Source: a bacterium (lineage in GTDB: Bacteria; Patescibacteriota; Minisyncoccia; Phycocordibacterales; Phycocordibacteraceae). Taken from it: a stretch of DNA of 64,000 nt. The notes under the pieces were generated by a model. That model did not search any database and was not told the DNA's origin. It worked only from the letters and a program-made list of their open reading frames with translations. Every line of letters begins with the position of its first letter. Position 1 is the stretch's first letter. This document shows, in pieces, positions 2 to 60,303 of this stretch. The stretch lies in contig JAJYHK010000019.1 of assembly GCA_021784815.1 (NCBI GenBank), positions 48,726 through 112,725 of the forward strand, read 5' to 3'. The position numbers and the translations under genes were made by a program.

Positions 2-3514
<3,513 letters not shown>

Positions 3515-3522
3515 AGCGACCG

Positions 3523-3574
3523 CACGAAGATAACACAACGCCCGCCAACAGGCGGGCGTTGTGTTATCTTCGTG
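3523..3574 (+). terminator. 24-bp perfect stem / 4-nt loop hairpin immediately after rpoC stop
   Basis: cacgaagataacacaacgcccgcc-aaca-ggcgggcgttgtgttatcttcgtg, read directly from the sequence. No T-tract, as is common in GC-rich genomes. Confidence 0.6.
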
Positions 3575-3867
3575 CAGCTTGAGCATGAGCTGCTATCAAA
3601 ATGAGGCGGCGCAGAGGGTCGATCCTCTGCGCCGAGTATCAGCTGCACATCGTGGTCGCCGTCATAACGCAGACGGGCGGCTGGGTTGAGGTAGGGCCTC
3701 CTTTTGCCGCAAGACCGATAGTCGCTGCTACGAGCCCTGCAACAAGCAGGGCATTGAGCAGAAACGAAAGCCCATCGCACAGCCCACGATGGCGTTGGCG
3801 ATTCCTTCGCATGCGCACCTCGACCCCTCCCTATGTGGTTCGTGCCTAATGCAAAAGTAGCACGTAT

Positions 3868-3903
3868 GACGTGTCTAGTCAAGCTTTCTTCATCGCGGTA
3901 AAA
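3868..3903 (+). promoter_or_regulatory. candidate sigma70-type promoter for dnaG (-10 TAAAAT at 3898-3903, weak -35 about 17 bp upstream)
   Basis: AT-rich patch 'gtctagtcaagctttcttcatcgcggtaaaatg' just upstream of the dnaG ATG. Motif match by eye only. Confidence 0.25.
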
Positions 3904-3912
3904 TGAAAATCT

Positions 3913-5619
3913 ATGGCGGGGGATCCGGTACAGGAAATCAAAGAGCGGCTTAGTATTCAGGAGATAGCGGCTCCCTACGTGAAGCTCCATAAGGCCGGGC
4001 GATCGATGGTGGGGCTGTGTCCTTTTCACAAGGAGAAGACGCCGAGCTTTCATATTTCGGTGGAGCGCAATACGTATCACTGTTTCGGCTGCGGGGAGGG
4101 AGGCGACATGTTCGCCTTCATACAAAAAGCAGAAGGACTGGAGTTTAAAGAAGCCTTGAAGCTGCTTGCCGAAAAGGCCGGCGTGCAGCTTACGTATGCG
4201 AGCGGCGCGCGGGAACGGCAGTCGCACACCGAGCGCATCCGAGAGGCGCTCGCGCGCGCGCAGCAGTGGTATGCCGCACAGCTGCCGGGGAGCGCCGCGG
4301 AAGCCTATGCGAAGAAACGCGGTCTCTCGGACGTAGTCCTAAGGGAGTGGGGTCTGGGATTCGCACCCGACGCATGGCGCGCGCTGCTCGAGACGCTTGC
4401 GGCTGAGGGGTTTTCGGCTGCGGAGCTCGTTGCGGCAGGACTCGTGAAGGAGGCCGATGGCAAACCAGGCGTGTACTATGATCGGTTCCGCGGCCGGTTG
4501 CTCTTCCCGATCCGAGACGCTAACGGGCACATCGCTGCTTTTACCGGGCGTATGTTGCCATCGGAGACCCACGCCAAAGAGGATGCCGCGCCGGCAAAAT
4601 ATCTCAACTCGCCGGAAACCGACCTCTATCACAAATCAGAAATCATCTTTGGGCTTGATAGGGCGAAAGATGCGATTCGATTGCGGCGCTTCGCACTCTT
4701 GGTGGAAGGGCAGATGGACGTGCTCATGGCGCATCAAGCCGGCTTCACGAATACGGTTGCACTTTCGGGAACCGCATTCACGCCGAAGCATGTGGCGCTC
4801 TTGAAGCGATACAGCGACAATCTGCTCCTCGTGCTCGACGCCGATTCGGCAGGCATCGCTGCAACGGCCAAGTCTGCGGCGCTTGCGCTCGCGCACGGTA
4901 TGCAGGTTAAGGCGGCACGCTTGCCCGAAGGGAGAGATCCAGCCGACCTCCTTCTTGAGGATGTAAGCGAATTTACGGCGCGTATCAAGGAAGCGAAGCC
5001 GGTAGTCGAGTTTTTTCTCGCCGTGCTCGCGGCGCGCGAGCGCGATGCGCATCGTCTCCTCGCACTCGCCGAGCGCATCGTGCTTCCGCTCATTGCGGCA
5101 ATACCGAGCCCGATGGAGCGCGATCTCTTTATGCAGTCGACCGCGCGCGCTTTGAGCCTTTCGACCGAGAGCGTTCGTGAATCACTATCGCGCCTTCCGG
5201 CCCAGGCGGTTCCCGAAGAACTGCATGTTCTTGTTCGTCCGAGCGCTGTCGAGGAGCGAACCGCCCGCGAAGCACGAGAAAAGGCGCTCCTTGCGGTTCT
5301 CCACGCATATGGCGGAACCCCTCTTGCCGAGCGCGTTAAAAGGGAGTATCTTCGGATTACCGAGGCCTCCGCGCTGCCTGCAGGCGTACCAGACGAGTCG
5401 GCTCTTTTCGGAATCGAGCGGCTGTTTGGCGATACGTCTGCCGAGGATGCTGCGGACGAGCTTCTTCGCGCCTTTGAAGAAGCGGTTATCCGCGAGGCGT
5501 ATCAGCGGGCGGTTATGCGTCTGCGAACGGCTGAGTCCGTCGGTGACGCAGATGCCATTACTAAGGCGCAAGCGTTGTGCGTGGAACTCGCCGCACGACG
5601 CGCTGCGCTCAACAAGTAG
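3913..5619 (+). CDS. dnaG: DNA primase
   Basis: CHC2 zinc finger ([14 protein letters not shown]...[11 protein letters not shown]), TOPRIM region ([17 protein letters not shown]). 568 aa. Confidence 0.92.
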
Positions 5620-5665
5620 CCTAAGCCATCGCATCCTCTCATCATCTTCCCTCCACACCACCATC

Positions 5666-6897
<1,232 letters not shown>

Positions 6898-6901
<4 letters not shown>

Positions 6902-6919
6902 CGTCTCGCAGGACGCTAG
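6898..6919 (+). terminator. short hairpin overlapping rpoD stop
   Basis: ctagcgtc-tcgcag-gacgctag. Confidence 0.35.
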
Positions 6920-6928
6920 ACTTTAGTC

Positions 6929-7480
6929 TTGCAGAGGAATATACTCGTTCACGTTTTCGCTATGTTGAGGCTTTTAGCAACGGTACTAAAAACCGGCTCC
7001 AAAGCGGAGCCGGTTTCAATCGTGGCTGACGAGCACGTGCTCGGCGAGAACCTACGAAAAGCCGTGACCGCGCTGTGCGGCGGGCGGGCGTTGCGTATCC
7101 GCCATGTCGATGCGGGCTCAACCAATGCCGAGGAGTATGAGCTCACTGCGCTTGGAAACGCGTACTATGATGCCGATCGGTTCGGACTCTCGTTCGTCGC
7201 CTCGCCGCGCCATGCCGACATCCTGACCGTTTCCGGACCGGTGACGCGCAGCATGGCGCACGCGCTCGTCGCAGCCTATGAAGCGATGCCCGAGCCGCGC
7301 ATCGTAGTGGCGGTGGGCGACGGTGCCATCACGGGCGGCATCTGGAAAGATTCCTACGCCGTTGTTGGGCCGGTATCGAGCCTACTACCAGTAGACGTGG
7401 AGATTCCCGGCGATCCACCTTCGCCGCGTGTGGTGCTCGAAGGATTGCTCGCCGCCGTGCGCTCGGCGAGCCGCAAGTAA
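6929..7480 (+). CDS. NuoB / HyfI / EchC-like 'small subunit' homolog lacking all four [4Fe-4S]-ligating cysteines
   Basis: Aligns with NuoB and hydrogenase small subunits (DRFG..ASPRHADILTVSG..MPEP..VAVG.GAITGG..VGPV..LPVDVEIPG.PP). The canonical CCxxE, GxCxxxGG and PGCPP read STNAEE, GDGAITGG and PGDPP. Start is TTG at 6929 or ATG at 6962. Confidence 0.8.
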   Translation: MQRNILVHVFAMLRLLATVLKTGSKAEPVSIVADEHVLGENLRKAVTALCGGRALRIRHVDAGSTNAEEYELTALGNAYYDADRFGLSFVASPRHADILTVSGPVTRSMAHALVAAYEAMPEPRIVVAVGDGAITGGIWKDSYAVVGPVSSLLPVDVEIPGDPPSPRVVLEGLLAAVRSASRK

Positions 7481-53172: not shown

Positions 53173-54150
53173 CTAAACGAAGGCAGGGACGTACCGTATC
53201 GGAGCGTGCACCGTTGGCGGCCGTGCGTCGAGTGCCATGCCTGCGCAGAGGACGGAGAGGATGACGAGCGAGAAAAGGAAGACGCGCTTCGCCCATGTGG
53301 CGTCATCAGTCCCGCGGAAACCGCGCAGCGAAAGCGCGATCCATCCGATGCCCAGGACGATTGCCGTGAGGCCGTATGCTATGCCGGTATAGCCGAAGGG
53401 CCAAAGCAGCACGGAGACGATCGCAAAAGCGGAGACGTACAGCACTATCTGTTCTTTTGTCTTGCGCACGCTTTTAACAATGGGCCAGACAGGAATCTTC
53501 GCAGCCGCATAGTCGTCGCGGCGGAAAAGCGCGATCGCGAAGAAATGCGGCATCTGCCAGAGGCAGAGCATAACAAAGAGAATGAGCGCCGCGAGATCAA
53601 ATCGCCCGGTGACGGCGCAGTAGCCGACAACGGGCGGCATCGCGCCGGCAATGCTGCCGAGGTGAGTCGCGTAGGGAGTGCGTCGTTTGGAAAGGAGCGT
53701 ATAGAGGATGACATACGTAAAGAGGCCGAAGAGCGCCATCGTAGTCGCAAGGGGCGTTGTGCCGCGCGCAAGGATGAGGGTGCCGGCGAGGCCAAGGAAT
53801 GTAGCGTAGACGAGCGACGCGCGCGGCGCGATCGCGCCGCGCGGCAGCGGCCGCTCCTGCGTGCGCAGCATGAGACGATCGATGTCCCGATCGAGGTAAT
53901 TGTTAAAGACGCATCCGCTCGCAACTACGAGAGAGAGACCCGCAAGCATCGCCGCAAGCGTTGGGAGCATGAGCGCGCCGTGCGAGGCGAGGAAGAATCC
54001 GCCGAGCGCGGAGATGGCGTTCCCGTAGACGATGCCGGGCTTCGCGAGCTCGTAGTAGGCGCGGAGAGTAGAAACAGCGGTAGAGTGCGAGAACGCGCTC
54101 GGCGGGGTACCGGGGACGGGCTTCGATTGCGCAAATGAGCGGCTTTGCAT
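53173..54150 (-). CDS. cyoE: protoheme IX farnesyltransferase (heme O synthase)
   Basis: UbiA-family. NYLDRDID and the second Asp-rich motif. Confidence 0.9.
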   Translation of the reverse strand: MQSRSFAQSKPVPGTPPSAFSHSTAVSTLRAYYELAKPGIVYGNAISALGGFFLASHGALMLPTLAAMLAGLSLVVASGCVFNNYLDRDIDRLMLRTQERPLPRGAIAPRASLVYATFLGLAGTLILARGTTPLATTMALFGLFTYVILYTLLSKRRTPYATHLGSIAGAMPPVVGYCAVTGRFDLAALILFVMLCLWQMPHFFAIALFRRDDYAAAKIPVWPIVKSVRKTKEQIVLYVSAFAIVSVLLWPFGYTGIAYGLTAIVLGIGWIALSLRGFRGTDDATWAKRVFLFSLVILSVLCAGMALDARPPTVHAPIRYVPAFV

Positions 54151-54152
54151 AC

Positions 54153-54503
54153 CTACATCGAATCCTGACTCTGGGTGTACTGGAGCATGCGAGTCGGAGT
54201 CGGCATCATGCGCGCATTGAGGTTGTACATGATCCAGAGCGAACCGACGACCACGATACCCACGATGACGAGGGTGAGCGCGAGTGCGAGCTGGTTGAGT
54301 TTGTTGCCGCGCTCGCCAAGATGGAGGAACAGCGCAAGCTGGATGAAAAGCTGCACGAGCGCAAGCGCCACGAGTGCCGCAAGGCCGGTGCCGTGGGCTA
54401 CCGGGTGCGCCGCGACGAGCCAGTACGCGGCAAGGGTGCAGACGAGCGAACCGAGGAATCCGAGCACATAGCGCCCCGGGGATGTCTCAGAGGAAGCATT
54501 CAT
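54153..54503 (-). CDS. cyoD: cytochrome o quinol oxidase subunit IV
   Basis: 116 aa, three TM, CyoD-like. Confidence 0.7.
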   Translation of the reverse strand: MNASSETSPGRYVLGFLGSLVCTLAAYWLVAAHPVAHGTGLAALVALALVQLFIQLALFLHLGERGNKLNQLALALTLVIVGIVVVGSLWIMYNLNARMMPTPTRMLQYTQSQDSM

Positions 54504-55096
54504 ATGAAGGGGAAGAGGTACACGATAGTGAAGATGAGTACCCAGATGATATCGAGGAAGTGCCAGAAAAGGGCGAGCAGGGTAAGCCGGCGCACGTTGG
54601 TATCCGAGAGGCCGCGGAACGCGACCTGTACAAGGAGTACCAGCATCCAGAGCGAGCCGAGCGCCACGTGGAGTCCGTGCGTGCCGACGAGCGTGAAGTA
54701 GGCGGAGAGGAATCCGCTCCTCGAGGGGCCGTTGCCTGCCGCGACAAGGCCAGCGAACTCGTGGATTTCGAGCCCGAGGAAAGAGAGACTGAGTAGGAGC
54801 GTCACCGCAAACCAGGCGATCGTTTCGCGCGCGCGATCACGGCGTGCCGCGAGGATGCCTAGGCCCGCGGTAAAGGAGCTGGTGAGCAGGATAAGTGTCT
54901 CGGCAAGCACGTAGGGGAGGCTGAAGAGACTGCGCGCGTCTGGACCGCCGAAGGTGTTCGTGTGCAGTACCGCATATGTCGCGAACAGGCTTGCGAAAAT
55001 GAGGCAATCGCTCATCAGGTACAACCAGAAGCCGAACACGGTTACGTCTTGCGTGGCGTATGCTTCGTGCGTGAGGGCGAGGGAGCGGTCGGTCAT
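54500..55096 (-). CDS. cyoC: cytochrome o quinol oxidase subunit III
   Basis: 198 aa, five TM, CyoC-like. Confidence 0.85.
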   Translation of the reverse strand: MTDRSLALTHEAYATQDVTVFGFWLYLMSDCLIFASLFATYAVLHTNTFGGPDARSLFSLPYVLAETLILLTSSFTAGLGILAARRDRARETIAWFAVTLLLSLSFLGLEIHEFAGLVAAGNGPSRSGFLSAYFTLVGTHGLHVALGSLWMLVLLVQVAFRGLSDTNVRRLTLLALFWHFLDIIWVLIFTIVYLFPFI

Positions 55097-55099
55097 AGG

Positions 55100-57052
55100 T
55101 CAGGCAGAATGCGCCGCATCGAGAGCGGCTACGCGCGCGGCGGGAATGACGTACTCTGTGTCTTCCATAAGCGAACGCATGACAAGAAAGACGAGGAACG
55201 CGAGGGCAGCAAGTGCCGCAAGCCACCAGATGTGCCAGATCACGGCAAACCCGAAGAAGAACGCGGTGCCCGCGAGGTAGATGCCCATTGGAGTGTTTTT
55301 CGGCAGCACGATATCTTCGTACGCTCCGGGGGCGAGGCTCTCGCCGGTGCGCTTTGCCTCCCAGTAAGCGTCGCGGCTTGAGATTTTCGGCGTCTTGGCG
55401 AAGTTGTAGAACGGTGCGGGCGAAGGAACCGACCACTCGAGCGTGCGGCCGTTCCAGGGGTCCGCGGCGTCCGCAGTGGTGCGCGCGCGATCTCGAATGC
55501 TCACGAAGATTTGCATGAGCTGGCTTACGAACCCAAGTACGATGATGCAGACGCCGATCCCGGCCATGATGAAGAGCGGCTGCCAGCCGAGCCCTGCCGG
55601 ATAGTGGTCGAGCCGGCGCGTCGCACCCATGAGCCCGAGTACATAGAGGGGAATGAAGGCGACCATGAATCCAACCGTCCAGCCCCAAAACGCGCGCGCA
55701 CCCCATTTTTCATCCAACCGGAAGCCGAAGATTTTCGGCATCCAGTACGTGATCGCCGCGAAATCGCCGAAGAGCACGCCACTCACGATCATGGTGTGGA
55801 AGTGGGCGACAAGGAAGAGCGAGTTGTGGAGCTCGAAGTCCGCAGGCGGCACGGCCATAAGGACGCCTGCCATGCCGCCGATGGTGAAGAGCGCAACGAA
55901 GCCGAGGAACCAGAGCATCGGCGTGGTGAAGAGTATGCGGCCGCGATACATGGTAAAAATCCAGTTGAAAATCTTCACCCCCGTAGGAATCGCGATGATC
56001 ATGGTCATGATACCGAAGAACGCGTTCACGTCAGCACCGGCGCCCATGGTGAAGAAATGGTGCAGCCAGACGATAAACGAGAAGACGGTGATCGCCATGG
56101 TTGCGAGCACCATCGAGGGGTAGCCAAAGAGCCGCTTCTGCGAAAAAACCGCCACGACCTCGGAAAACACGCCGAAGGCAGGCAGGACGAGGACGTATAC
56201 CTCGGGGTGGCCCCAGGTCCAGATGAGGTTCACATACATCATCATGTTGCCTCCGCCGCCCGCGGTGAAAAAGTGCATGCCGAGGTATCGGTCGAGCGTG
56301 AGCATGCCGAGGGTCGCGGTGAGGACGGGGAAGGCGAAGACGACGAGGAGCATGCTTCCGAGGACCGTCCAGACAAAAATCGGCATGCGCATGAGCGTCA
56401 TCCCCGGGCAGCGCTTCTTGAAGATGGTGGTGATAAAGTTTATGCCCGAAAGGAGGGAACCAATGCCGGCGATTTGTACGGCCCAGATGTAGTAATCAAC
56501 GCCGACGCCCGGGCTATAGCGGAGCTCGGAGAGCGGCGGGTAGGCGAGCCAGCCGGCAGTCGAGAACTCGCCCACGACGAGCGAGAGCATCATGAGCGCC
56601 GCACCGGACACGAAGAGCCAGAAGGAGAGGGAGTTGAGGAAGGGGAAGGCGACATCTCGGGCGCCGATCTGCAGCGGCAGGACAACGTTAATGAGGCCGA
56701 GCATGAGCGGCATGGCCACGAAGAAGATCATAATGACGCCGTGGCCCGTAAACACCTGCTGGAAATGCTGGGGCGGCAGGTAGCCCCCGCCGCCGGCCGC
56801 GAGCGCCTGCTGGAGCCGCATCATAATAGCATCGATGCCGCCCCGTACGAGCATGACGAGTGCCACGACGATGTACATGACCCCGATCTTCTTCGCGTCG
56901 AGCGAGGTGAGCCACTCATTCCAGAGCCAGCTCCATTTCCTAAAGTAGGTGAGGGCGCCGAGCACAGCGAGGGTGCCGATGACGATGAAGATCTGCGCCC
57001 CAAGCACGATGGGTCCCTGTTCGACAGCGGCGATGGTGAGGCGGCCAAACAT
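55100..57052 (-). CDS. cyoB: cytochrome o quinol oxidase subunit I (heme-copper oxidase catalytic subunit)
   Basis: 650 aa. The haem/CuB His-ligand motifs are inferred from the family and overall similarity; they were not located in the translation. Confidence 0.93.
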
Positions 57053-57055
57053 ACG

Positions 57056-58033
57056 CTACGGGCGCATCGGCATTACGGGCGCGCCGCTTGCAGGCGGAGT
57101 CATAAACCGCATGACGATTTCAGCATATAAACGCGAGTTGGTCACGCGGAAAACGGTGGCGGGGTTGTGCACGCTCGGCTGCGCAAGCTGCGTGTATGCC
57201 GCAAAGGAAAGCGTGTTCGGCGAACGTTGTGCTTGCGAGACCCATGCGGCAAAGTCGTTTGTGGTCATTGAGCGGACAGGGAAGTGCATGCTCGAAAACC
57301 CCGCTCCGCTTAGGTTCGACGAGAATCCTTCGTACGTGCCGGTTGCATCAGCCATGAGGTGTAGCTGGGTGATCATACCCGGCATAGTCATTTCCTGACC
57401 GCCGAGCTGCGGAATCCAGAAGGCGTTCATGGGCGCATCGCTCGTGAGCTTGAAGGCGATCGGCGTCTGCTCCGGGATCGCGAGATAGTTCATCGTCGCG
57501 ATGCCTTGCGCGGGGTATATGAAAAGCCATTTCCAATCGAGCGACACGACCTCGACGGTAAGCGGCGACATAGGTGAATCAATAGGTCGGAAGGGGTCGA
57601 GCGCGTGTGCGCTCTGCCACGCGACGACTGCAAGCGCGGCGACCACGATCATGGGTACCGCCCACCAGATACCCTCCTCGATGCGGTTGTGTTCCCAGCT
57701 CGGGCGGTACTGTGCCCGCGTATTGCTTGCTCGGTAGTGCCAGGCGATACCGAAGGTGAGCGCAAAAACCGGCACCACCACGATAAGCATAAGGAGCGCC
57801 GCCTTGATCATGAGCGCCTGTTCGCGCTTCGCGATAACGCCTTGCGGATCGAGCAGGCCGACGGCATGCCCATGGGTAAGGGAAAGGGCAATAGCGGTGA
57901 TAGCTGCCGCTAGGATGAGCACGGAAGGGAAGACGTACTTTGGATTCACGCTTCGCTCATTATCAGTCGCGCGGAGCAAAATGCAATGAATCGCTGAGAG
58001 ATACGGGGGAAAAGGAGGGGGGTGGACATCCAC
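57056..58033 (-). CDS. cyoA: cytochrome o quinol oxidase subunit II (no CuA ligands)
   Basis: Colinear with E. coli CyoA (EVVSLDWKWLFIYPAQGIATMNYLAIP..FKLTSDAPMNAFWIPQLGGQ). Lacks the CuA Cys/His, so a quinol oxidase. Confidence 0.88.
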   Translation of the reverse strand: MDVHPPPFPPYLSAIHCILLRATDNERSVNPKYVFPSVLILAAAITAIALSLTHGHAVGLLDPQGVIAKREQALMIKAALLMLIVVVPVFALTFGIAWHYRASNTRAQYRPSWEHNRIEEGIWWAVPMIVVAALAVVAWQSAHALDPFRPIDSPMSPLTVEVVSLDWKWLFIYPAQGIATMNYLAIPEQTPIAFKLTSDAPMNAFWIPQLGGQEMTMPGMITQLHLMADATGTYEGFSSNLSGAGFSSMHFPVRSMTTNDFAAWVSQAQRSPNTLSFAAYTQLAQPSVHNPATVFRVTNSRLYAEIVMRFMTPPASGAPVMPMRP

Positions 58034-58370: not shown

Positions 58371-58949
58371 ATGAACAATGCACGTCTCTTGTTTTTCGCC
58401 GCAGCCTCGCTTTCACTCTATGTTCCGATCAGTCGCGGCCGGCCAAAGCGCTTGTGCGGTATGCCGATAGATCGACGCATCCCGTTTTTGCCGATATTCG
58501 TCATTCCCTATCTCTCGCTGTTTTTCTTTCTCCCAGCCGCGATCATCCTTCTCTACCCGACGCCCTTTGCGGGGTCGTTTCTTGTCGCGCTCGGCATTGT
58601 CGGCCTGCTCTATGCCACAATGAGTCCTTTCGTGGGGTGCGGTGCTCGACGCGCGGACGCGCACGGGCCGGGGATATTGCGGGCTCTCGTGCGGTTTGTA
58701 TACCGGATCGACGGAGAGTACAACAACGACGTCTTTCCGAGTACTCACGTGTACGTTTCGACCATTTGCGGATACTATCTCGCGCGCGCATACCCGCCGT
58801 ACGCGCTCCTGTCTTGGGCCGCTGCGGTCTGCATTGCCGCCTCGACGGTGTTCATCAAGCAGCATAATCTCATGGATATCGCGGGCGGGCTCGTCTGGGC
58901 AGCGACAGCGATTCTCGTCGCACAGAGCGTGCTCTCGCTCCTTGTCTAG
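58371..58949 (+). CDS. PAP2-family membrane phosphatase
   Basis: PSTHV ... HNLMDIAGG PAP2 motifs. 192 aa. Confidence 0.65.
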   Translation: MNNARLLFFAAASLSLYVPISRGRPKRLCGMPIDRRIPFLPIFVIPYLSLFFFLPAAIILLYPTPFAGSFLVALGIVGLLYATMSPFVGCGARRADAHGPGILRALVRFVYRIDGEYNNDVFPSTHVYVSTICGYYLARAYPPYALLSWAAAVCIAASTVFIKQHNLMDIAGGLVWAATAILVAQSVLSLLV

Positions 58950-59122
58950 AACTCATTTCAATGATAATGGCGACGAAAACGGCAAAAATCCGTCGGGAGG
59001 CTCAATGAGGCCTGAGGTACGGGGAAACGGACGAAGCCGAGCCGCAGCAGGATTTTTGCCGTTTTCGTCGCCAAACTGCGAGTTCTTTCATAAAAAGTGG
59101 TTATTATTGAAATGAGTTCTAG
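58945..59122. repeat. nested-palindrome (MITE-like) element: 17-20 bp outer inverted repeats and 23-bp perfect inner inverted repeats around a 58-bp core
   Basis: Outer ctagaactcatttcaat(gat)aat at 58946-58968 and attattgaaatgagttctag at 59103-59122. Inner ggcgacgaaaacggcaaaaatcc at 58969-58991 and ggatttttgccgttttcgtcgcc at 59050-59072. Confidence 0.55.
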
Positions 59123-59167
59123 GGTAAGTAGCAAATCATCCAGAAATACGCTACAAATAGGGAACCA

Positions 59168-59240
59168 GGGCCCTTAGCTCATCTGGTAGAGCGCATCCAT
59201 GGCATGGATGAGGTGAGGAGTTCGAGTCTCCTAGGGTCCA
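59168..59240 (+). tRNA. tRNA-Ala (anticodon GGC)
   Basis: Cloverleaf folded by hand: acceptor GGGCCCU/AGGGUCC with G3:U70, anticodon loop AUGGCAU, T-loop UUCGAGU, discriminator A. CCA not encoded. Confidence 0.85.
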
Positions 59241-59245
59241 CTCTA

Positions 59246-59601
59246 GTAGACAAGGGAGACAAAATTGCCTCTTTTGCCTTGAAAATAAAGGATATTTCCG
59301 GAGTTCCAAATTTTTCTCCATCGAAGGTCAAACCTGAGGGGAATTGGAACCACTGAAGCTGTGTTTGCGTTTTAATCCCTACCTTTTTCCACGTGTCGCT
59401 CGGGCACTGAAGATACTCTGTGGAGAATGCCACCGCCTCGTCAGGAGAACCGACGGAGCGATTGAGTAGGGCAAGCGTAGAGCATGCCTCGACCTCTGCC
59501 TTCTCGGTGATTGCGAGCTGCTCTTGCAGTACAGCATCGCTAATAACGCCCTTTAGGTTTTTCTGCACGAGCGCGGTGCGTCGCTCAGCCAGTTCGCTCA
59601 C
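59246..59601 (-). pseudogene. 3' gene remnant in low-GC DNA abutting the 3' end of tRNA-Ala (ORF 59179-59601 runs on through the tRNA)
   Basis: Protein-like translation (…ISDAVLQEQLAITEKAEVEACSTLALL…) with no stop before the tRNA. AT-rich 59246-59420. Confidence 0.3.
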
Positions 59602-59750
59602 TTGCGCTTCTAGCTTCGTAATCTTTTGCCGCTCCTTTGCCGTTACTTCTCCGAATTGGAGCGAAAAGGGCAGAACGCGCTCTCGCAGTTGCGCATGTAA
59701 GCACAGCCCTCGCCTCGCGGCGGGGGCTGTGCGAGCATTCTTTTCGCGTG

Positions 59751-59821
59751 TCGGGCCGCCGGGAATTGAACCCGGTCTACACGCACCCGAAGCGTGCGTA
59801 CTACCGTCATACTCCGGCCCG
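59751..59821 (-). tRNA. tRNA-Pro (anticodon CGG)
   Basis: C1:G72 pair typical of bacterial tRNA-Pro, anticodon loop UUCGGGU with G37, T-arm CCGGG-UUCAAUU-CCCGG. Confidence 0.8.
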
Positions 59822-59822
59822 G

Positions 59823-59896
59823 TGCGCTCTATAGGATTCGAACCTATGACCTTACGCGTGTGAAGCGTACGCTCTAACCAACTGAGCTAAGAGCGC
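59823..59896 (-). tRNA. tRNA-Val (anticodon CAC)
   Basis: Acceptor GCGCUCU/AGAGCGC, D-arm GCUCAGUUGGUUAGAGC, anticodon loop UUCACAC, T-loop UUCGAAU. Confidence 0.85.
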
Positions 59897-59980
59897 GAAC
59901 ACCCCCACGATACCAAATATGGGCTGAAAACGCACTCCCACCGAACAAAAGCCCGCACAAGGCAGACATTTGTTCGGTAG

Positions 59981-60051
59981 TCGGGCCGCCGGGAATTGAA
60001 CCCGGTCTACATCCACCCCATGGACGCGTACTACCGGTATACTACGGCCCG
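59981..60051 (-). tRNA. tRNA-Pro (anticodon GGG)
   Basis: Same acceptor and T-arm as the Pro-CGG copy. Anticodon loop AUGGGGU. Confidence 0.8.
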
Positions 60052-60193
60052 AATGCAGAAAGGGTAACACACGGCGTACTGTGTGCTACTCGAACGGAGT
60101 GGCGGACCGTACCGATACGGCTCGAATCGCCCCAAGATTGCACGTCCTTACTATACTGCACCGGCTGATTCTGTGCTAAAATCGCCGTTACGA

Positions 60194-60266
60194 GGGCCCA
60201 TAGCTCAGTTGGTAGAGCGCGTCATTCGCATTGACGAGGTCAGGAGTTCGACTCTCCTTGGGTCCA
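60194..60266 (+). tRNA. tRNA-Ala (anticodon CGC)
   Basis: Acceptor GGGCCCA/UGGGUCC with G3:U70, anticodon loop UUCGCAU, T-loop UUCGACU. Confidence 0.85.
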
Positions 60267-60303
60267 CTGGAAGCAGTGAAGCGCTTCCCAAGCGCCATAG
60301 GCT

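Follow-up and report, generated by a model that had tools for sequence, protein, structure and literature searches.

A family of miniature TA-flanked inverted-repeat elements in Parcubacteria that very probably represents non-autonomous DNA transposons

Introduction

What is a long nested palindrome doing between a PAP2-family gene and a tRNA-Ala gene? The question arises at one locus of a 64-kb stretch of bacterial DNA (contig JAJYHK010000019.1, positions 48,726 to 112,725; hereafter the window), in which a first-pass annotation had described a 178-bp palindromic unit at 58945-59122 and had offered three readings of it: a miniature inverted-repeat transposable element (MITE), a structured small RNA, or an unusually elaborate transcription terminator. 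Here, we report that the feature is very probably one copy of a family of non-autonomous DNA transposons found in Parcubacteria, a group of the candidate phyla radiation (CPR). The nested palindrome is present as described, and its extent is smaller: alignment with other copies sets the bounds of the element proper at 58949-59119 (GAACTC...GAGTTC), or 171 bp.

Results

Filled and empty sites

The strongest evidence comes from relatives that lack the element. In PAP2 orthologs, the order COX operon, small open reading frame (ORF), PAP2, tRNA-Ala is kept and the element is absent; five related loci (L062, L064, L065, L068 and L069) show an element-free junction of PAP2, its TAG or TAA stop codon, and tRNA-Ala. 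The PAP2 proteins of these and neighboring loci are 78% (L062 and L063), 76% (L064) and 64% (L065) identical to that of the window, and the closest ortholog, P0015, is 90% identical over 192 aa and is found on L068 and on L069 (the latter from the metagenome that also yielded the window). In the closest relative, the junction reads ...CTCCTTGTT-TAA-GGTAAGTAGCAAATCGTCC..., the window ...CTCCTTGTC-TA[GAACTC...171 bp...GAGTTC]TA-GGGTAAGTAGCAAATCATCC..., and the empty alleles of L068/L069 carry a single TA (CTTGTT-TA-AGGTAAG). The next 122 bp downstream are 98.4% identical between the window and this relative. By this alignment, the difference is a clean 173-bp insertion, consisting of the element plus one TA, in the TA with which the PAP2 stop codon begins. 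The duplicated TA occupies 58947-58948 on the left and, as identified by comparison of flanks with empty sites, 59120-59121 on the right.

Two more empty sites were found at independent loci. One concerns a copy in rpoD (L043, compared with L071) and the other a copy between mreB and holB (L060, compared with L070, in which these genes are only 5 nt apart). Among 13 copies, TA flanks both ends in 12 and the remaining copy has TA/TG, giving the general form TA-GAACTCATTTCAAT...ATTGAAATGAGTTC-TA. Bases further outward vary from copy to copy and are not duplicated. The CTAG...CTAG seen in the window is TA with chance neighbors, its outer C and G being host bases.

Copies, subfamilies and hosts

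GTDB species representatives were scanned with the terminal repeat GAACTCATTTCAATRATAA as query. Paired inverted matches 170-200 bp apart were recovered from two contigs of a Candidatus Sungbacteria metagenome-assembled genome (MAG; L017 and L034). MAGs labeled as Saccharibacteria also gave matches (L009; L015, L016 and L024; L026), several of these copies being truncated by a contig end, and an unclassified MAG gave a truncated copy (L010). A metagenome scan added 25 contigs, with groundwater-type metagenomes among the carriers. Deduplication leaves at least 13 different full-length copies (171-196 bp), at unrelated loci with differing flanking genes. The first-pass annotation had held that a single copy at a conserved position would speak against a MITE; what we find instead is that further copies, flanked by target-site duplications, occur at unrelated loci, and that relatives have a junction free of the element.

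The copies fall into about six subfamilies; members of different subfamilies are 55-77% identical, those of one subfamily up to 97%. Once orientation is normalized, all begin with GAACTC and end with GAGTTC; the terminal ~19 nt are near-invariant family-wide, the interior is divergent, and certain non-palindromic internal motifs are conserved in the alignment. GC content of the elements stays at 44-50% across hosts that range from 40 to 61% GC. Two MAGs hold more than one copy, with 2-3 copies each: MHQM01 (L017 and L034) and CAZYED01 (L015/L016 and L024). Contigs of CAZYED01 break inside the element (L015, L016, L024), and copies at contig ends are to be expected of a repeat. About 25 lone matches of 19-21 nt in Bacteroidota and other genomes, like the matches in L041, L048, L053 and L055, were set aside as chance, because they come without a partner repeat or family interior. 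The viral contigs, plasmids and phages searched yielded no copy and no sequence similarity.

Neighboring genes point to the hosts; the window itself belongs to a metagenome contig of 121.6 kb in ENA (ERZ27236914 k141_1785571). RpoD beside the L043 copy matches Sungbacteria, MreB beside the L060 copy is closest to Ryanbacteria (88%), and the named relative of the window PAP2 protein is from Candidatus Kaiserbacteria (59% identity), from which the window host can be taken as Kaiserbacteria-like and hence as a member of the Parcubacteria. Judged by these matches, at least three Parcubacteria lineages carry the family: Kaiserbacteria-like, Sungbacteria and Ryanbacteria-like. The NCBI label of CAZYED01 ('uncultured Candidatus Saccharibacteria') looks unreliable, because the flanks of its copies are ~96% identical to, and orthologous with, the locus of the Sungbacteria MAG MHQM01 (L034).

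Anatomy of the window copy

A repeat finder places the outer inverted repeat at 58946-58967 and 59101-59122 (22 nt, 95% complementary). The perfect core of its right arm is at 59106-59122, where the first-pass annotation had given 59103-59122; the 3-nt gat indel proposed for the left arm is in fact a single G/A mismatch (58963 versus 59105). The inner repeat, at 58968-58991 and 59050-59073, is fully complementary over 24 nt, rather than the 23 bp first given, and its arms are indeed separated by 58 nt. Such nesting is far beyond chance: neither arm has another match at three or fewer mismatches in the 64-kb window, and two arm matches were reached in none of 100 shuffles of the window. The element is also AT-richer than its surroundings, as had been claimed, with 47.4% GC against 60.6% in the host (window GC ~60%).

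From left to right, the copy begins with the terminal inverted repeat GAACTCATTTCAATGATAA (58949-58967, + strand), the terminal 19 nt that are almost invariant in the 13 copies and form helix 1, which never covaries. The left arm of the inner repeat (58968-58991, +) corresponds to helices 2 and 3 of the family; helix 3 shows compensatory changes in 8 of its 14 pairs, with pairing kept. The 58-nt core (58992-59049, +), delimited by the alignment and consensus fold of the copies, contains two family-conserved motifs on the + strand: GGAGGCTCAA at 58996-59005, which reads CGAGGCTCAA in other copies, and GAGCCGCAGCAGG at 59039-59051, known from the same alignment. The window copy retains only part of the central hairpin seen in the family and has also lost part of the right spacer. 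Beyond the right inner arm (59050-59073, +), whose pairing is conserved, an AT-rich spacer (59074-59100, +) occurs on the right side only and thereby confers polarity on the element. The right terminal inverted repeat, TTATTATTGAAATGAGTTC (59101-59119, - strand), carries an outward-facing ATG at 59112-59114.

A rod-like fold maintained by covariation

RNA folding, which the first-pass annotation had put forward as a check, gives a very stable structure. For a 191-nt stretch, the folding energy is -88.6 kcal/mol (z = -10.2) as the + strand and, for its complement, -81.4 kcal/mol (z = -10.7) as the - strand; folded as DNA, the whole element has z = -11.3. The consensus of the 13 copies (RNAalifold) is a rod of 59 pairs. 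The terminal inverted repeat forms its outer helix, which lacks covariation and is constrained in sequence, much like a protein-binding site. Helices 3, 6 and 7, far from the termini, contain double substitutions that preserve pairing. On the consensus structure, 97.9% of cells pair; shuffling the columns lowers this figure to 87.1%, and sliding the partners lowers it to 44% or less. Both sides have changed in 21 of the 59 pairs, a number reached in none of 500 shuffles, with these covariation counts resting on only ~6 independent subfamilies. By these measures, the rod-like hairpin is maintained across subfamilies through compensatory changes.

The two senses differ. The consensus folds at -71.0 kcal/mol in the + sense of the window and at -55.0 kcal/mol in the opposite sense, and G.U outnumbers A.C in the + sense by 18 to 6 columns (39 to 7 cells). 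This excess drops to 12 versus 7 columns when the opposite-strand predicted structure is used. We regard these figures as no more than suggestive of strand-specific selection on the rod.

Insertions at gene boundaries

The element occupies extremely short spacers, and several of its insertions coincide with gene ends. In the window, the PAP2-family gene (58371-58949, +) is as long as its orthologs (...SLLV*), and its TAG stop overlaps the left arm. The protein is unchanged because the left TA and the first G of the element (58949) rebuild TAG. To judge from the empty alleles, the insertion point of this copy is precisely the stop codon, and the gene is undamaged. The same would hold elsewhere, since any stop codon struck at its TA is rebuilt as TAG by an element that begins with G; in fact, a stop codon is the precise insertion site of 4 of 13 copies (window, L009, L017 and L058). 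Downstream, tRNA-Ala(GGC) (59168-59241, +) lies outside the element, as the neighbor already named by the first-pass annotation, and starts 46 nt past the right arm. A block of the form TAGCAA-17 nt-TACAAA (59129-59157, +), conserved in L062, L064, L068 and L069, is intact 7 nt downstream of the insertion. It is a putative promoter of tRNA-Ala, which a consensus scan did not flag.

Copies also lie within operons (dnaG-rpoD, mreB-holB) and even within the 5′ end of rpoD, and their orientation relative to neighboring genes is unbiased (~5 co-oriented, ~6 anti-oriented). At both ends, the element has an ATG that points outward from 8 nt inside the tip. At L043 (6511-6760; locus also in L034, L040, and L015 with L016), a copy sits inside the first codons of rpoD in the dnaG-rpoD operon. 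The gene for this primary sigma factor is interrupted after ATG GCA AAA GA|TA, and its ORF is in frame again from the ATG of the terminal repeat (MSSKQKQKKK), with Pfam sigma-70 regions 1.1-4; element-free orthologs begin with MAK[T/Q]KQK.KKK. At L010, a truncated copy that has lost its right terminal repeat (3241-3404) precedes a pyrH-like UMP kinase ORF (3343-4092, +) that begins at the terminal-repeat ATG (MSS-IVIKLSGE) and has no alternative start ahead of the conserved KLSGE motif. At both genes, the terminal-repeat ATG may serve as the start codon.

Discussion

We have considered what kind of sequence this family represents, starting with the two readings in which the window copy would have a function of its own at this locus. 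That it is a small protein-coding gene is hardly credible. An ORF of 36 codons (59005-59115, +) does exist in the window copy, as first noted, preceded by a Shine-Dalgarno-like GGGAGG that could act as a ribosome-binding site, and it encodes a basic peptide. However, 7 of 13 copies lack its ATG, the peptides of the others are unrelated and differ in length, GGGAGG is CGAGG elsewhere, no ORF is conserved among the 13 copies, and the region evolves by paired (structural) rather than codon-wise substitutions; we therefore judge the ORF to be copy-specific and no gene. A regulatory hairpin or elaborate terminator specific to the PAP2/tRNA-Ala junction might be suggested by the position directly after a stop codon and by the very stable fold. 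This too we consider extremely improbable: the element is missing from the equivalent junction in the five related loci and is found at unrelated loci, in both orientations, in operons and inside the 5′ end of rpoD. Moreover, no T-tract follows either stem on either strand, and a consensus scan of 58700-59400 returned 0 promoter-like or terminator-like sites. Since orthologous loci lack the element, a small RNA peculiar to this locus is likewise unlikely.

Other explanations accept mobility and place the emphasis elsewhere. One holds that the conserved rod is a functional RNA, either a mobile small-RNA gene or a cis-acting module (an RNase III target or mRNA stabilizer), selected on one strand. 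The strong covariation in helices distant from the termini, the better fold and G.U excess in the + sense, and the conserved non-palindromic motifs all lend some support to this idea. On the other hand, orientation to neighboring genes is unbiased, the G.U excess shrinks on the opposite-strand structure, the central helix is lost in the window copy, and the element contains no promoter-like site. Nor does it belong to an Rfam family: with gathering and E-value thresholds applied to the window copy and five other loci, only tRNAs pass, and the best non-tRNA matches are miRNA-like hairpins far below threshold. On balance, we think this explanation unlikely. Another proposes single-strand transposition, as in palindromic elements of the IS200/IS605 type (PATEs, moved by a Y1 transposase), or some other non-DDE enzyme that inserts beside TA without duplication. 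The whole element can indeed fold as a DNA hairpin, its pairing is preserved, one strand showing G.T-type wobbles, and a TA-ended element inserting 3′ of TA would mimic a TA duplication. IS200/IS605-derived PATEs are likewise short non-coding mobile units with conspicuous palindromes and are reported sometimes to bear RNAs. PATEs are without terminal inverted repeats or target duplications, and IS200/IS605 ends carry separate subterminal hairpins without terminal inverted repeats. The Parcubacteria element, by contrast, has a target duplication and long, near-perfect, invariant terminal inverted repeats, which are typical of DDE transposons, and a Y1 transposase or TnpB was seen near none of the copies. 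This route is very unlikely, in our estimation.

We favor the MITE reading for several reasons. The element is within the size of MITEs (up to ~600 bp, in bacteria mostly <200 bp), has terminal inverted repeats and a target-site duplication, and lacks coding capacity; its copies occupy unrelated sites, and filled and empty sites can be compared at three independent loci. The strict TA target with its 2-bp duplication further agrees with MITEs derived from IS630/Tc1-mariner elements. REP/BIME sequences mobilized by RAYT are 20-40-nt imperfect palindromes that occur in clusters, without terminal inverted repeats or target duplication. The present unit, in contrast, is 171 bp long, has both features, and occurs singly. 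Reports of MITEs in CPR, Patescibacteria or Parcubacteria were not found in the searchable literature, from which the terminal-repeat string is also absent; we therefore take the family to be new, of a well-known kind and not surprising in kind.

A number of observations weigh against this interpretation. A mismatch search and an nhmmer search with the family profile, which together covered the window and 5 kb of extra contig, found no further copy. The nearest sampled copy is 73% identical to that of the window, and no sibling of its subfamily was seen. TA on both sides is equally expected if an element with a terminal TA inserts 3′ of TA. No transposase is present among the 20 window ORFs scanned with Pfam, and tblastn with an IS630 transposase query found no convincing IS630-like ORF in 508 kb of loci, the weak match in L010 being pyrH. 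Terminal-repeat pairs 120-2500 bp apart, sought in all loci as a sign of an autonomous partner, were only chance-like, lacking TA flanks or long ORFs, and viral contigs, plasmids and phages gave no such partner either.

How might a non-autonomous transposon of this kind spread? A transposase acting in trans would recognize the invariant termini and cut and paste the copies. The enzyme would most likely be of the DDE class, IS630/Tc1-mariner type, and encoded elsewhere. The sole basis for naming this type is the strict 2-bp TA duplication, which is a hallmark of IS630/Tc1-mariner enzymes. The maintained hairpin suggests that a single-stranded form, be it a transcript or DNA in transposition or replication, matters for the spread or the harmlessness of the element, and may be kept for that reason. 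The termini, in turn, may allow very compact genomes to tolerate insertions at gene boundaries: TA plus G would halt an incoming ORF and the ATG 8 nt from each end could restart an outgoing one. It is tempting to go further and regard the element as more than a passive MITE, with a rod that serves as a functional RNA or as a single-stranded intermediate required for transposition, and with termini shaped as 'translational punctuation' that allows colonization of gene boundaries and of the first codons of essential genes (rpoD, pyrH). We see this extension as improbable.

The window family matches the general description of bacterial MITEs, which are <200 bp and AT-rich, with terminal inverted repeats, terminal TA, target-site duplication and long stem-loop transcripts (PMC2229807). 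Its organization is most like that of Correia/NEMIS, RUP and ERIC. Correia/NEMIS elements of Neisseria are similarly non-coding (100-160 bp), with terminal inverted repeats of ~24-26 bp and TA duplication; they are mostly intergenic, co-transcribed and form a long stem-loop, and their cognate transposase is not known (PMC2229807, in part general background). There is no sequence similarity between the two, the hosts are Parcubacteria and not Neisseria, and the Parcubacteria family has an extra covarying inner rod. Correia elements, moreover, have a documented IHF site, documented promoters and documented processing by RNase III. RUP of Streptococcus pneumoniae and other IS630-derived MITEs share the small size, the terminal inverted repeats and the targeting and duplication of TA (PMC2229807). 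Mobilization of RUP in trans by an IS630-family transposase was inferred from similarity of terminal repeats, with the same TA-duplication argument as used here (PMC2229807). The partner of RUP is known to be IS630-Spn1; none was found for the Parcubacteria family. The enterobacterial ERIC/IRU and YPAL are also imperfect palindromes over their whole length (~127-170 bp) with terminal TA, are transcribed with neighboring genes, and can fuse to host ORFs (PMC2229807). However, the terminal inverted repeats of ERIC are very short (~7 bp), while the Parcubacteria family has invariant termini of 19-22 nt and an asymmetric spacer.

CPR/Patescibacteria genomes, of ~1 Mb and densely coded, are usually deemed poor in mobile DNA. 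The identical termini in three lineages, together with polymorphism between close relatives, speak for active or recent transposition and probably for horizontal spread. For genome work, the family explains some of the contig breaks in Parcubacteria MAGs and is a potential marker of strain-level variation. In annotation, the 36-codon ORF should not be called, and N-termini of neighboring genes such as 'MSS...' should be recognized as derived from the element. Copies in stop codons and copies that replace the starts of rpoD and pyrH show how DNA with only a few bases between genes can accommodate a transposon. The covarying rod and the start- and stop-supplying termini are the parts of the element that might repay more work.

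Other features of the locus and of the carrier contigs

The window and L069 may be compared in another respect. Between window 58371-58946 and L069 375-950, the PAP2 protein is 90% identical and the DNA only ~80%. Identity is 98% over the spacer and tRNA that follow. One sample holds two related populations. Downstream of the tRNA-Ala 3′ end, the window (59242-59700) and the relative with 90% PAP2 identity (L068, about 968 onward) diverge completely. In L064, a 543-aa large serine recombinase (4702-6333) follows tRNA-Ala, which may be an integration hot spot. A window ORF at 59179-59601 (-) was considered as a remnant of this recombinase and rejected as unsupported (E = 9; no Pfam match).

On the other side of PAP2, at 53173-58033 (-), the window contains a complete cytochrome bo3-type oxidase cluster, with COX2, COX1, COX3, COX4_pro and a UbiA-family gene resembling haem O synthase. 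The cluster is conserved in L062-L064 and is notable for a Parcubacteria-type genome. A tight cluster of tRNA genes on both strands, for Pro(CGG), Val(CAC), Pro(GGG) and Ala(CGC), occupies 59750-60267, in which a tRNA-Pro and the tRNA-Val abut at 59821.

Carrier contigs contain further palindromic units. Taking the family described above as family A, a family B has terminal repeats GAACCCATCTCAAAAATC and a length of ~160 bp (L058, 1287-1446; L039, about 6868-7058), and a family C is represented by a 268-bp unit (L050, 275-542). Both have terminal GAACNCATYTCAA and TA flanks in common with family A, and in L045 (237-592), L057 and L059 the right spacer of a family-A element has a family-B element nested within it. 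Unrelated to these, and on the same CPR contigs, are two palindromic units, a 159-bp foldback with ends AGACCTACTGATTAAATA (L017, 92-250) and a 24-bp hairpin (L047, 2022-2080). Beside the family-A copy at L017 1452, the flanking sequence includes AGACCTACTATTA, similar to the end of the 159-bp foldback. Finally, a 17-nt string, AGTAGCCAAGCGTATGA, is exactly shared between the element-free PAP2/tRNA-Ala spacer of L062 (4698-4714) and L017 1584-1600 (element positions 133-149); this match (blastn E = 0.002 in a small database) could be due to chance or to an old relationship.

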